DNA of 64,000 bases from Gammaproteobacteria bacterium (GTDB taxonomy: Bacteria > Pseudomonadota > Gammaproteobacteria > JAJDYQ01). The stretch spans positions 49,471-113,470 of the forward strand of contig JAPYNQ010000078.1 in NCBI GenBank assembly GCA_028289815.1, given 5' to 3'. Below are positions 1 to 3,163 of the stretch, one piece after another; position 1 is the first letter of the stretch; every line of letters begins with the position of its first letter. The notes under the pieces were generated by a model. The model had not been told where the DNA came from, did not search any database, and saw only the letters and a program-made list of their open reading frames with translations. The position numbers and the translations under genes were made by a program.

Positions 1-715
1 TGGCATCATCGATCTCAATGCCTGCCGTCTTCATTCGTGTCGCGAGCTTAATTGCCACTTCCTTTACGTGCTCATTGAATTCCAAGTAAATGATGCCACT
101 GACATCGCTCGGTATTTCGAGTGCCCCCTTCTTGAGGATCACCATGCGTTCCCGTCCAAGAGATGCCAGCACCATGCCAAGTTCCAGGATGACGTTTTGA
201 CGGGCGCGCGGTTGTCGATCTTCAGCCTTTTTGTCCTTGGGATAACCAAAGTCATCGGGAGTGAGAAGAACAATACCGAAGGCGGCTTCTTCGTAGATTT
301 GCTGTTCGAGTGCCTCAATGAGAGTTTTCGATTCTCCGTCGTTGTTTTGAAGGATATACGGGTCCAGTGCAAGCCGCCGCAGGATGAGTTCAAGCTGTTC
401 AAGTGCTGTCGGGTCGTGGCCGTGGACTACAAATATCTTTGTTTTTTTGTCTTTCGGCGCAGCGGTACTCGGCAGGCTGGGTTCCGTGCCTCCGGATGTA
501 AAGATTGCTTCAAGCTCAGTTTTCGCTTTTTCTTTCCCCTGGCATTGGATCGTGCCTGTGCGGGGCCAGTAGTTGAGTGTGCCTTTTTGTTGAGACTTGA
601 AGGTGTACTTATTAGGGTGCTTGCCCTTATTGTCTTCGATCCAGTTTCCTATGATGCCACTGGCATCAATAAGACGGCGGAGTTCGTCAATCCCTTTGTG
701 ATATTTAATTTTCAT
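1..715 (-). CDS. TIR-like domain protein (COG4271 / PF10137 'CAP12-PycTIR'-type), N-terminal part only; gene runs off the left window edge
   Basis: Reverse-strand translation from ATG at 713-715 gives MKIKYHKGIDELRRLIDASG...KIFVVHGHDPTALEQLELILRRLALDPYIL...AAFGIVLLTPDDFGY...RARQNVILELGMVLASLGRERMVILKK...IPSDVSGIIYLEF. The F-V-H-G-hD / LLTPDD / ARQNV-ELG-LGR motif set is the signature of the bacterial TIR-like nucleotide-binding fold. There is no stop before position 1. The listed + ORF 68..739 is its opposite-strand shadow. Confidence 0.6.
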   Translation of the reverse strand, partial: MKIKYHKGIDELRRLIDASGIIGNWIEDNKGKHPNKYTFKSQQKGTLNYWPRTGTIQCQGKEKAKTELEAIFTSGGTEPSLPSTAAPKDKKTKIFVVHGHDPTALEQLELILRRLALDPYILQNNDGESKTLIEALEQQIYEEAAFGIVLLTPDDFGYPKDKKAEDRQPRARQNVILELGMVLASLGRERMVILKKGALEIPSDVSGIIYLEFNEHVKEVAIKLATRMKTAGIEIDDA

Positions 716-1244
716 TTAGTTCTCCTGTTTTTCCTGTGACGGCGGCGGTGATAAGTGCCGATCTGTATTCTTCCAGCTGTGTAATGCTGTCTTTAACTTT
801 TTCAACGGTCTGGTCAATTTGAGCAGTTTTCTCATCCAAAAACCGTGCAATCTGCTTTTGGATTTTGAGTGGAGGAATAGGTGCCCTCCAATCTTTGATG
901 AAGCTCTCATCAATACGCTTTTGTCCCCCAGATCCATACATTTCCGACTCTCCAAGCTTTCGGAAGTCATCTGCGAGCGAGATATAGAAGAGAAAATGCC
1001 CGTACATACTTGGCCCTGGACGGAGAATATGAAGTTCAGTTGTCCCAAACCCCACTCCACTTGTAAGCCCTTTGGCAAGAGCTCCTTTTCCATTTTCGAA
1101 GCAAGGTGTAATCTTCGCAACACAAACGTCGCCGTCAGCAAAATAAGTGTAGCTGTCGTAGACATCTCCTAGCTCTCGCACATCGTCAAGATTTAGGCCT
1201 CCATATTCACTAACGGCTTCCATGGGAATAAACATTAATTTCAT
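705..1244 (-). CDS. hsdS: Type I restriction-modification specificity subunit HsdS, half-size form (single target-recognition domain plus conserved C-terminal helix)
   Basis: 179 aa. It contains the TRD motif ITPCFENGKGA and the conserved HsdS repeat LPPLKIQKQIARFLDEKTAQIDQTVEKVKDSITQLEEYRSALITAAVTGK. The ATG at 1242-1244 is preceded by an in-frame stop 3 codons upstream. The stop overlaps the start of the TIR-like gene by 11 nt. Confidence 0.65.
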   Translation of the reverse strand: MKLMFIPMEAVSEYGGLNLDDVRELGDVYDSYTYFADGDVCVAKITPCFENGKGALAKGLTSGVGFGTTELHILRPGPSMYGHFLFYISLADDFRKLGESEMYGSGGQKRIDESFIKDWRAPIPPLKIQKQIARFLDEKTAQIDQTVEKVKDSITQLEEYRSALITAAVTGKTGELNEN

Positions 1245-1489
1245 TGACAGCTCTGGCTACAGTGGTCGGTGTACTCATAGAGGTTCCATTGATGCTTATG
1301 CTGGTAGCAATTTGCAAGCGCACATGTCATATTTTTGATGAATGTCACTTGGGTTATCCTCAATGTAAAACTTCTGTATTGGCTGATGAGGTATAGAATA
1401 AAAATCTGATAATCACTTGTATTTTGATGGCAAAAGCTATTGCCTGCAGTGTATATGAGGGTTTTCGGTATAGTTTTTCTGGCTACTTG

Positions 1490-3163
1490 CTAAATCCAGA
1501 TTCCCACAATAGTAAACAGGACGAGTAATACCAGCAGCCTTTCTATCAGATTCCCGGTCAGCCATGCACCGATATTTCGAGTATTTATCGGTATCCAGCT
1601 CAGAATGGTAAATGGTAGGCATGTGATTTCATAGGCGCGTGCTGCGATGTTGCGCACATTGTCGGCAATTTTTGGTACTGCCTTGCGGTAAAGCCATTCG
1701 GAATCCAGATTCACCGAATGTAGCTCCGCCGGCGCATAGCGTCTTTTTTCCATCCAGATAAATGCGAGTGCGGCAAAGCATAGGAGCTGTAGTTGTGCGA
1801 CGACATGCGTGGTGTCGTAGGGCCAGTAATTGACTTCCCACGGCAGCAGTGCATAGAGGTATTGCGGAAAGATGCCAATCAGGATACACAGTACGGCGGC
1901 AATCAACATCGCAACAAGCATGTTCGCCGGTGCTTCCCGGGTGCGTATGCCGGAGTCATGGGAAAAGAAGGCAAAGTATGGTACCTTGATGCCGGCGTGG
2001 TGGAGTACGCCTGCAGAGGCGAACAGTAACGCCAGCCAAACATATTGATGCCCTTCTTCAAGCAATGCTGTCATCACAAAAGATTTGCTGACGAAACCGC
2101 TGAACAGCGGCAGTGCCGAGATCGAGGCTGCGCCGATAATACACAGCACGGCGGTTTTTGGCATGGTTTTGTACAATCCTCCCAAGTCGGAGGCATAGAC
2201 ATGACCGACCCGGTACAGGACAACGCCCATCGACATGAACAGCAGTGATTTATACAGGATATGTGAGAAGGCATGTGCAACCGCTCCGTTCAGTGCCAGT
2301 GCCGTACCGAGGCCAATACCGGTGACCATAAAGCCAAGCTGGTTAATCAGGCTGTAGCTCAATACCCGTCGTAAGTCATTCTCAATCACGGCATAGAAAA
2401 TTGGGAAACAGGTCATAACCGCGCCGATATAAATCAGAACATCCGTGCCGGGAAACCCTCGCGCCAGCGTATAGACGGCAACCTTGGTGGTGAATACGGA
2501 TAAAATGGCGGCGCCTGTCGGCGTGGATTCCGGATAGGCATCGGTCAGCCAGTTATGCAGAAACGGAAAGGCACATTTGATGCCGAATGCCAGCAGGATT
2601 AGCCAGCCCCCTGTGCTTTCGATACCGATAAAGTTGAATTCCAGTGAACCCGTGTCACGGTAGTGAATCAGTGTGCCGGTCAGTAGCAATACGCCGGAAC
2701 AGACCTGAAAGACCAGATAGCGCATGCCCGCTCGGGTGGCGCGAACACTGCGTCTGGCCCAGATCAGGAAAACAGAACTGATGACCAGCAATTCCCAGAA
2801 AATGAACAGCGTTATCAGGTCGCCGGCGAATACTGCTCCCAGCGCACTGCCTGCGTAAATCAGGCCGGCAACATGCTGCATGGTATCTTTCAGGTGTAGC
2901 GTGTAAATCACCAGCACAAGGGCGACGATGTGAAATATGTAACCGAATACCAGACTCAGCCGGTCGCTACGCATCAGGGTGAGATCGAATTCAAGCAGTG
3001 ATATGTTGAGCAAAACCCCGGTGGGTGCATCCAGCCACAGGTGCAGGCCACCGAGCAGCGGTGCCAACAGCATCAGGGTGCTGCGTAGATGACCGCGGGT
3101 TACCAGCGCCAGCAGTGCGGCCAGCAAGAAGGGAATAAACGGTGGCAGTTCACTCATCCACAT
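1490..3163 (-). CDS. Mrp-type antiporter, NuoL/M/N-like proton-pumping subunit (MrpD/MnhD family), copy 3
   Basis: 557 aa polytopic protein carrying the NADH dehydrogenase subunit L/M/N-like antiporter core (e.g. LSYSLINQLGFMVTGIGLGT, HAFSHILYKSLLFMSMG). Confidence 0.8.
   Translation of the reverse strand: MWMSELPPFIPFLLAALLALVTRGHLRSTLMLLAPLLGGLHLWLDAPTGVLLNISLLEFDLTLMRSDRLSLVFGYIFHIVALVLVIYTLHLKDTMQHVAGLIYAGSALGAVFAGDLITLFIFWELLVISSVFLIWARRSVRATRAGMRYLVFQVCSGVLLLTGTLIHYRDTGSLEFNFIGIESTGGWLILLAFGIKCAFPFLHNWLTDAYPESTPTGAAILSVFTTKVAVYTLARGFPGTDVLIYIGAVMTCFPIFYAVIENDLRRVLSYSLINQLGFMVTGIGLGTALALNGAVAHAFSHILYKSLLFMSMGVVLYRVGHVYASDLGGLYKTMPKTAVLCIIGAASISALPLFSGFVSKSFVMTALLEEGHQYVWLALLFASAGVLHHAGIKVPYFAFFSHDSGIRTREAPANMLVAMLIAAVLCILIGIFPQYLYALLPWEVNYWPYDTTHVVAQLQLLCFAALAFIWMEKRRYAPAELHSVNLDSEWLYRKAVPKIADNVRNIAARAYEITCLPFTILSWIPINTRNIGAWLTGNLIERLLVLLVLFTIVGIWI

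Follow-up and report, generated by a model that had tools for sequence, protein, structure and literature searches.

At the left edge of the window (the whole stretch of DNA analyzed here, 64,000 nucleotides), an open reading frame (ORF) resembling HsdS, the specificity subunit of type I restriction-modification (R-M) systems, overlaps the start of a gene for a TIR-like protein that runs past the edge. Do these two genes form a new defense system, in which a half-size DNA-recognition subunit partners with or regulates a TIR effector, or are they what remains of something larger? The preliminary description of this DNA allowed for both. We conclude that positions 1 to 1244 are probably the upstream margin of a type I R-M locus that has decayed but retained an embedded TIR defense candidate. 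The features concerned are as follows.

1 to 715, minus strand: gene for the TIR-like protein, PADLOC family PDC-S35; first 238 of 245 codons
705 to 726, minus strand: translational-coupling junction, read from the sequence
705 to 1244, minus strand: hsdS', 179 aa, what 5' truncation has left of a type I R-M specificity gene, with one target recognition domain (TRD)
1228 to 1244, no strand: approximate deletion breakpoint, where homology to hsdS genes ends
1245 to 1489, no strand: spacer between the mrp operon and hsdS', 245 bp, AT-rich (39% GC), non-coding
1490 to 3163, minus strand: last gene of the Mrp/Mnh antiporter operon (Proton_antipo_M, 557 aa), given as context

A 5'-truncated specificity gene

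The ORF at 705 to 1244 is HsdS-like, as first proposed, with matches to PF01420 (E = 2e-7) and to the PADLOC profile Specificity_I (E = 3e-47), where aa 3 to 172 fall on profile positions 38 to 208 of 571. Its description as a half-size HsdS does not hold. A half-size HsdS has a complete single TRD with its N-terminal segment and is encoded downstream of hsdM, whereas this ORF is a 5'-truncated fragment without the TRD N-terminus. In alignment, its closest TRD homologs (60 to 75% identical) carry approximately 45 extra N-terminal residues (...WxRRRLRF..NPKKS...ELVS|FIPMDAV). By tblastn, homology to hsdS starts at window position ~1232, and by blastn to three related loci (L092, L093, and L094) it starts at nucleotides 12 to 18 of the ORF, or window positions ~1228 to 1234; sequence further upstream is unlike hsdS, and three-frame translation there gives in-frame stops. 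Because hsdS homology ends at ~1228 to 1244, the ATG at 1242 to 1244 is a fortuitous start, and no Shine-Dalgarno sequence precedes it. What is left is a TRD lacking its first ~45 residues, followed by the distal conserved helix (...EYRSALITAAVTGKTGELNEN), which falls short of the specificity gene of a type I R-M system, with at least one complete TRD plus conserved regions. Since the deletion took hsdM and the start of the hsdS TRD (~45 codons), the 179-codon ORF is, on the evidence of its sequence, a dead remnant of hsdS rather than a functional half-size HsdS.

Natural half-size HsdS proteins (229 to 242 aa) do adjoin the TIR gene in four related loci (L003, L011, L095, and L096), and like the window ORF they comprise one TRD and the conserved C-terminal helix. 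Together with the overlap of the two genes, which would permit co-expression, they lend some support to the idea that the 179-aa protein is a working half-size specificity subunit that partners or regulates the TIR protein in a two-gene system independent of R-M. Against this, the natural half-size genes are 50 to 60 codons longer and always follow hsdM, while the window ORF, some 45 to 60 residues shorter, has neither the TRD N-terminus nor an upstream hsdM nor a ribosome-binding site, and starts exactly where hsdS homology starts. Decayed loci excepted, an hsdS-TIR pair lacking hsdM and hsdR occurs in none of ~90 loci. We therefore consider a two-gene system very unlikely. A silent cassette of a phase-variable hsdS shufflon was also considered and rejected: the window holds a single HsdS match, no recombinase was called in L001, the contig sequence of this locus, and a search for inverted repeats gave none that were significant.

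At the other end of the remnant, the hsdS stop codon (TAA, 705 to 707) lies beyond the TIR start codon (ATG, 713 to 715), giving the 11-nt overlap noted at the outset, and the TIR start is preceded by an AGGAGA Shine-Dalgarno sequence (721 to 726) encoded by the hsdS G-E-L codons, so that the TIR ATG sits inside hsdS codons. The same junction, ..GGAGA(A/G)(C/T)T(A/G)A ATG GC.., is common to six related loci (L003, L004, L012, L015, L095, and L096), and in a seventh (L006) the overlap is again 11 nt, though the motif is weaker (GGGGGA). Co-expression, as read from the overlap in the preliminary description, is the right reading, with a junction conserved in relatives. The hsdS' remnant may persist because its 3' end holds the ribosome-binding site of the TIR gene.

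The spacer and the mrp junction

As previously reported, the 245 bp upstream of hsdS' are non-coding, with no notable ORF between 1245 and 1489, and the Mrp cluster begins at 1490 with a gene co-oriented with hsdS' and the TIR gene. Neither hsdM nor 5' hsdS remnants were detected in the spacer by tblastn (E value of up to 100), three-frame translation, or blastn against ~90 related loci. Its minus strand showed no terminator-like hairpin and no match to a sigma-70-like promoter, and an Rfam search of the spacer gave no RNA. Flanking direct or inverted repeats that might explain a deletion or insertion were limited to short chance matches.

As the sequence derives from metagenome assemblies, the mrp/hsdS' junction could be a chimeric join and the truncation no biological event at all. 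Independent assemblies agree on this junction, which is present both in a 105-kb JGI contig seen in two samples and in a Logan assembly (SRR10406107); over 14,553 bp the two differ at no position. A third contig carries the ORF as well, and the protein database separately lists a 120-kb contig encoding the 179-aa ORF. An assembly artifact is hardly conceivable in the face of these records.

An intact hsdR beyond the window edge

Reading the contig past position 1 retrieved the C-terminus of the TIR-like protein, whose gene has its last seven codons and stop outside the window and ends 23 nt beyond position 1. Leftward across the edge, the gene order is hsdS'-TIR (245 aa)-M78-DUF4411-hsdR (1030 aa), after which housekeeping genes begin. 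The hsdR gene (L001 13568 to 16660) starts 2324 nt past position 1 and is intact; its product has the HSDR_N, ResIII, SWI2_SNF2, and T1R_D3 domains of a type I R-M HsdR and can be aligned end to end with its relatives (76 to 80% identity). In contrast, hsdM gave no match in the 64-kb window (tblastn with three HsdM proteins and a profile HMM of 21 HsdM proteins) or in the 10 kb to its left (tblastn), and the operon thus lacks the N6-adenine methyltransferase gene of a functional type I R-M system. The earlier statement that no HsdM or HsdR partner was in reach is therefore right for hsdM, and for hsdR it is true inside the window only.

Between the TIR gene and hsdR, likewise outside the window, lies an M78-peptidase/DUF4411 pair (L001 11895 to 13552), which also occupies the hsdS-hsdR slot in L007 and L074. 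HTH-DUF955 (M78) proteins and PIN-like DUF4411 proteins occur together in toxin-antitoxin-like modules of three components (Matelska et al. 2017, PMC5499597); the pair 3' of the TIR gene has exactly the same architecture, here nested between hsdS and hsdR. With hsdR and these two embedded genes beyond the window, and with hsdM and the 5' end of hsdS gone, the edge of a decayed R-M or defense islet was the better of the two initial readings. A full-length hsdR is unexpected in a long-dead locus. It may be explained by a recent deletion or by a compatible hsdMS elsewhere in the genome. The locus as a whole sits in the mrp-ssrS interval.

The TIR-like protein belongs to PDC-S35

The TIR-like signature recognized earlier in this gene corresponds to PF10137 at aa 93 to 214 (E = 4e-33; 114.4 bits against a gathering cutoff of 24.7), and the protein matches PADLOC profile PDLC05003 (PDC-S35) over its full length (E = 1e-91; positions 3 to 237 of 245). 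The catalytic-type glutamate of the motif singled out in the preliminary description is retained: E178, the Glu of NVILELG, is invariant in 51 homologs and aligns with the Glu of NVVFEFG in the solved Cap12/TIR-STING proteins 9lmq and 7un8. The predicted structure has a TIR fold at moderate confidence (pLDDT 66), with 9lmq, 9lmr, 7un8, and 8jsj as its best matches among solved structures. What had been described as a 60-residue N-terminal segment is in fact a conserved domain of ~75 residues with a TBP-like fold, followed by a linker. In every protein of sufficient length with a Pfam match, this N-domain is joined to PF10137; Pfam gave nothing for three representatives that were shorter or unmatched (P0249, P0255, and P0325).

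Comparison with known TIR effectors places the protein close to, and outside, two established systems. Cap12/TIR-STING of CBASS and PycTIR of Pycsar share its TIR subfamily (PF10137) and the catalytic-type motif NV(I/V)xE(L/F)G. PDC-S35, however, has no STING or cNMP-binding sensor, and the TBP-like N-domain of ~75 aa stands in the sensor position. Pfam found only PF10137 on the protein, with no STING or SAVED domain, and the NCBIfam Cap12 score of 39.5 is far below the cutoff of 450, so that it is not a CBASS member; the match to PADLOC PycTIR is weak (E = 4e-12, over the TIR part) and does not place it in Pycsar. Among the called genes within 10 kb, Pfam families revealed no CD-NTase or cyclase gene. 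RnlA/LsoA toxins and RNase HIII also have an N-terminal domain with this TBP-like fold, at only 12 to 15% identity and with no family match at the sequence level. Since the fold is a common one, a nucleic-acid-binding role is only a lead; it offers a concrete hypothesis for the target of the sensor.

Payne et al. (bioRxiv 10.1101/2024.01.29.577857) drew the PDC candidate set from genes lying within BREX, DISARM, or type I R-M loci. The window protein is the same as the catalogued PDC-S35 apart from a four-residue insertion (PNKY) in the N-domain, and it has the same nesting between hsdS and hsdR; the difference lies in the host locus, which here lacks hsdM and the 5' end of hsdS. The locus belongs to a lineage that carries a single-gene TIR-like defense candidate (PF10137; PDC-S35) nested between hsdS and hsdR. 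The layout is already catalogued and the locus is an ordinary member of a catalogued candidate family, and it is therefore not a new two-gene system. A literature search returned no published functional test of PDC-S35, and a survey of TIR proteins in E. coli (PMC11350192) makes no link to type I R-M.

Relatives define an hsdM-hsdS-TIR-hsdR cassette

The adjacency of hsdS and TIR genes, which the preliminary description suggested looking for, does recur in other genomes, only not as a free-standing pair. Where hsdS adjoins the TIR gene on a contig that is long enough, hsdM is always found upstream, and hsdR is found downstream except in L020; the context is therefore the whole hsdM-hsdS-TIR-hsdR cassette. 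Twelve loci show this order (L003, L004, L006, L010, L013, L015, L019, L025, L029, L031, L095, and L096), with HsdR proteins 39 to 80% identical to that of the window contig. A further locus, L014, has the TIR gene preceded by just the 3' end of hsdS, and the 375 nt of contig beyond the gene contain no hsdR; by its sequence it looks like a second decayed locus. Among 30 non-redundant loci with usable flanks on both sides, 18 are embedded in R-M and 12 (~40%) are not, with neighbors such as guaA, pheS, recQ, and dnaKJ. The proposal of an undescribed TRD-TIR pairing is therefore not supported: an intact hsdR lies beyond the TIR gene, an outcome that the preliminary description had itself named as refuting; the family is already listed as PDC-S35; adjacent hsdS and TIR genes belong to a whole cassette; and ~40% of the family's loci are found away from R-M.

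Intact relatives thus have an operon of hsdM-hsdS-TIR-hsdR, in which the last hsdS codons contain the start codon and Shine-Dalgarno sequence of the TIR gene. In this genome, a deletion removed hsdM together with some 45 codons from the start of the hsdS TRD, bringing the rest against the 3' flank of the mrp operon and leaving intact the TIR gene, the HTH-M78 peptidase/DUF4411 (PIN-like) toxin-antitoxin-like pair, and hsdR. Without HsdM and HsdS, HsdR would not restrict DNA. The TIR protein would be an autonomous abortive-infection effector, its TBP-like N-domain sensing an infection cue, possibly nucleic acid, and its TIR domain hydrolyzing NAD+ via the invariant Glu178, with a putative anti-phage effect. 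Having lost the hsdM promoter, the TIR gene is probably transcribed by read-through from mrp or from within the AT-rich spacer.

Passenger or guard of the R-M complex

An alternative hypothesis is that in intact cassettes the TIR protein is not a passenger and serves as a functional accessory of the R-M system. The HsdM2S1(R2) complex would keep it latent or be monitored by it, and it would be triggered once restriction is blocked by phage anti-restriction proteins (such as Ocr, ArdA, or Stp-like peptides); the TIR gene in this genome would be the leftover of such a guard arrangement. The precedent is PrrC, an anticodon nuclease encoded in the EcoprrI type I R-M locus, where its gene separates hsdS from hsdR. 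Like PrrC, PDC-S35 is a (predicted) abortive-infection effector encoded at that position in a type I R-M operon; the chemistry differs, with PrrC a tRNA nuclease and PDC-S35 a predicted NADase. In Gammaproteobacteria, Alphaproteobacteria, Betaproteobacteria, and Acidobacteriota alike, the TIR gene has a fixed position and is translationally coupled to hsdS, which is consistent with a guard. So is the divergence of TIR proteins, which tracks that of HsdR and HsdM (Spearman rho of ~0.87 over 21 embedded loci, whose points are phylogenetically non-independent), and so is the persistence of the association across HsdR clades only 37 to 41% identical.

PrrC is functionally tied to the R-M complex, however. 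Payne et al. (bioRxiv 10.1101/2024.01.29.577857) cite it as a gene that is hardly ever found outside type I R-M loci, whereas homologs of PDC-S35 are found away from R-M as well: in the 12 non-embedded loci, the vicinity holds neither hsd genes nor any hsdS remnant, and the solo homologs there retain the whole N-domain. Were the TIR protein dependent on the R-M complex for its restraint or activation, it should be toxic or useless without hsdM and hsdS, yet the gene is intact without them here and apparently also in L014. Moreover, the same slot holds a wide variety of unrelated genes in sister cassettes (DUF3800, GmrSD, FRG, DarT, and M78-DUF4411). For the TIR protein of intact cassettes, a guard role is accordingly an unlikely explanation, and it is similarly improbable that PDC-S35 proteins are long-term co-evolving guard subunits of one R-M lineage, with the window showing a guard that has outlived its enzyme. 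If they were, the conserved overlap with hsdS would set the stoichiometry of the TIR protein, the TBP-like N-domain would bind to the HsdS/HsdM core or recognize a nucleic-acid cue, and phage DNA mimics that inhibit restriction would release NAD+ depletion.

Under the preferred reading, a decayed R-M locus with an embedded TIR candidate, the locus itself is of little import, being one more degraded R-M island with a TIR family that is already a PADLOC candidate. Because the coupling junction is conserved, the cassette is widespread across phyla, and TIR divergence tracks that of the hsd genes, the hsdM-hsdS-TIR-hsdR cassette would make a clean, clonable test of passenger versus guard. The locus also carries a caution for genome scans, in that truncation at a window edge can make a decayed operon look like a new gene pair. 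The nearest named relatives are Chromatiaceae (Thiocapsa, Thiocystis, and Lamprocystis), which makes a purple sulfur bacterium no more than a guess for the host; a plasmid collection searched for annotated close relatives gave only matches below 45% identity.

Degraded type I R-M island beside the mrp operon

The locus is a degraded type I restriction-modification (R-M) island in which embedded defence genes have been retained. As claimed in the preliminary description, two overlapping minus-strand ORFs are present at 1-1244, and profile searches bore out their identities: the first matched PF01420 (E = 2e-7) and PADLOC Specificity_I (E = 3e-47), and the second matched PF10137 (CAP12/Pycsar-type TIR) at aa 93-214 (E = 4e-33). 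The region upstream of hsdS was also correctly described as non-coding and followed by Mrp genes.

Features of the locus (window positions, unless given for L001, a retrieved metagenome stretch that carries the same locus and the DNA left of the window)
705..1244, minus: HsdS-like ORF, 179 aa, stop TAA 705-707
ATG 713-715 to past the window edge, minus: TIR-like ORF (PF10137), ending 23 nt past the edge, 245 codons in all
721-726, minus: Shine-Dalgarno AGGAGA, within the hsdS G-E-L codons
1245-1489: non-coding spacer, 245 bp
1490: beginning of Mrp antiporter gene
Left of window, after the TIR gene and before the Peptidase_M78 gene: spacer, 627 bp
L001 11895-13552 (+), left of window: Peptidase_M78 protein (384 aa, HTH-like N-terminus) and DUF4411 (PIN-like) protein (168 aa)
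Starting 2324 nt beyond window position 1: intact hsdR, 1030 aa (HSDR_N, ResIII, SWI2_SNF2, T1R_D3 domains)
L001 16749-16934 (+), ~5.5 kb left of window position 1: 6S/SsrS RNA gene (RF00013, 73 bits)

Two independent assemblies, a 105-kb JGI metagenome contig and a Logan assembly, encode an identical HsdS-like protein. Because these assemblies are identical over 14,553 bp, an assembly artefact at the junction between mrp and the hsdS ORF was ruled out. The 6S RNA gene and, directly after it, 5-formyl-THF cyclo-ligase form the classic ssrS-ygfA pair; this pair lies beyond hsdR, and the hsd island is therefore located between the mrp operon and ssrS. No hsdM was detected in the 64-kb window or L001 by tblastn with HsdM proteins of relatives, nor in the window by a profile HMM built from 21 HsdM sequences, and the sole HsdS profile match in the window was the 179-aa ORF. 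The earlier statement that neither HsdM nor HsdR is in reach thus stands for hsdM and fails for hsdR. With hsdM missing, hsdS truncated, and the HsdR, M78-DUF4411 and TIR genes remaining, the reading as the edge of a decayed R-M/defence islet is upheld. The alternative, an undescribed pairing of a target-recognition (TRD) subunit with a TIR effector lacking R-M partners, is not supported, given the hsdR beyond the edge, the truncated hsdS and the assignment of the TIR protein to the catalogued family PDC-S35; this appearance was due to the window edge and locus decay. PF10137 is the only Pfam domain on the TIR protein, which carries neither a STING nor a cNMP-binding sensor domain.

The hsdS remnant

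Homologs of the TRD are numerous (55-75% identity) and serve as TRD1, TRD2 or the sole TRD in short HsdS proteins. Complete homologs carry ~45 extra residues ahead of the ORF start (...G(E/D)LPxxWxRRRLRFDxxLNPKKSSLDMEPDELVS / FIPMDAV...), where the 179-aa ORF aligns as MKLM / FIPMEAV. Homology to hsdS sets in at window ~1232 by tblastn and at ORF nt 12-18 by blastn against L092-L094, three sister cassettes, and the 245-bp spacer matched none of the related loci. The C-terminal sequence (EYRSALITAAVTGKTGELNEN) belongs to the distal type, like the hsdS 3' end in cassettes L003 and L011. A few database entries of 161-181 aa have similar start points; of those checked, L093 is a contig-end call and L094 the 3' part of an hsdS split in two. 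The closest cassettes (L003, L011, L095, L096) encode natural half-size HsdS proteins of 229-242 aa, so the ancestral hsdS here may have been half-size; compared with these, the 179-aa ORF is 45-60 residues short and has no preceding hsdM. The label of half-size HsdS is therefore withdrawn: with ~45 N-terminal TRD residues missing, stops interrupting the upstream frame and no Shine-Dalgarno ahead of ATG 1242-1244, the ORF is, judged from its alignments, a truncated remnant.

Intact cassettes in relatives

Neighbourhoods were compared across 9 loci from species-representative genomes, 80 metagenome loci and 2 look-ups of the closest homologs. The order hsdM-hsdS-TIR-hsdR was found in L003, L004, L006, L010, L013, L015, L019, L025, L029, L031, L095 and L096, with HsdM proteins of 580-733 aa (HsdM_N + N6_Mtase); hosts include Pseudomonadales, Halioglobus, Rhodobacteraceae, Mesorhizobium, Thiocapsa, Nitrosomonas and Vicinamibacterales. 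The junction ..GGAGA(A/G)(C/T)T(A/G)A-ATG-GC.. with its 11-nt overlap recurs in L003, L004, L012, L015, L095 and L096; in L006 the overlap is unchanged and the motif is a weaker GGGGGA, and distant members have an 8-nt overlap (L051, L057, L086) or other close spacings. After removal of near-duplicates and with at least 1.2 kb required on each side (n = 30 loci), the TIR gene was embedded in hsd genes in 18/30 and elsewhere in 12/30; at 55% identity or more to the TIR protein here, 14/19 members were embedded. Non-embedded copies have a complete N-domain, no hsdS remnant nearby, and as neighbours guaA, pheS, recQ, dnaK-dnaJ or defence-like SIR2, Schlafen/AlbA_2 and DUF6602 genes. Across 21 embedded loci, identity in the TIR protein rises and falls with that in HsdR and HsdM (Spearman rho ~0.87, the points being phylogenetically non-independent). 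A PrrC-like guard role of the TIR protein in intact cassettes is the question of interest raised by this locus, and we consider such a role improbable.

A candidate sensor-effector

In PADLOC-DB, PDC-S35 gave a full-length match to the TIR protein (E = 1e-91), covering profile positions 3-237 of 245, and by this match the TIR gene is a new member of that catalogued family. As the name was found in no paper text in a literature search, we regard PDC-S35 as a candidate family only. Across an alignment of 51 homologs, Glu178 (NVILELG) is invariant and the N-domain is conserved, including W25, F39, G45 and W50; a 4-residue insertion in that domain (PNKY, aa 33-36; window 1-715, minus) is missing from all 50 aligned homologs. 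Profile alignment matches Glu178 to the NVVFEFG Glu of solved Cap12/TIR-STING proteins, which we take to be the catalytic Glu of SfSTING. The predicted full structure (pLDDT 66) resembles TIR domains of TIR-STING, SPARTA and MyD88. Likeness to PycTIR and Cap12 is confined to the TIR domain (39.5 bits on NCBIfam Cap12, cut-off 450), and no CD-NTase or cyclase was found among the neighbouring genes. PDCs are 145 'phage defence candidates' from genes nested in BREX, DISARM and type I R-M, then entered in PADLOC (Payne et al., bioRxiv 10.1101/2024.01.29.577857).

Among 1.84 billion representatives searched with phmmer, the N-domain was seen solely on short fragments or joined to PF10137. We infer a single-chain sensor-effector: recognition of an infection cue, perhaps a nucleic acid, would fall to the N-domain and depletion of NAD+ to the TIR domain. 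Searches of the minus strand gave no sigma-70-like site in window 1-1700 and no terminator-like hairpin in the 245-bp spacer; the TIR gene probably depends for its expression on read-through from the mrp operon, which has the same orientation, or on the AT-rich spacer.

Slot cargo and decay in sister cassettes

Other genes in the hsdS-hsdR slot of sister cassettes comprise DUF3800, GmrSD, FRG, DarT, unknown ORFs and the M78-DUF4411 pair, and in this R-M lineage the slot is a cargo hot spot. Between hsdS/TIR and hsdR, L034, L048, L051, L064/L068, L086 and L092-L094 carry GmrSD, FRG-domain, DarT and DUF3800 genes plus several Pfam-negative ORFs (121-777 aa). The HTH-M78 (DUF955) and DUF4411 PIN-like pair, here between the TIR gene and hsdR, is found in that position also in a Thiocapsa MAG (L007 712-2417) and a metagenome contig (L074 1715-3423); a three-component toxin-antitoxin-like module is predicted for HTH-DUF955 with DUF4411 (PMC5499597). 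Inside the 627-bp spacer, a 117-nt stretch (L001 11324-11435) is 81% identical to L093 1359-1474, the DUF3800 gene 3' end and spacer ahead of hsdR in another cassette, which suggests a mosaic history of the slot.

Sister hsd cassettes decay often. Transposase genes (DDE_3 and DDE_Tnp_1) lie between hsdM and hsdS at L094 6068-7126 and L096 5773-7113, and the hsdS of L094 is split into 291-aa and 169-aa ORFs. At L014 (290-1088), where the TIR gene is 77% identical to ours, the hsdS sequence ahead of it is down to ~45-80 nt from the 3' end, and the 375 nt of contig after it showed no hsdR; this looks like a second decayed locus. In a Vicinamibacterales MAG (L011 8203-10550), a 599-aa ORF without a Pfam match begins with the TIR N-domain (aa 1-73), and the TIR domain is separate, downstream, reflecting either a gene insertion or an alternative architecture.
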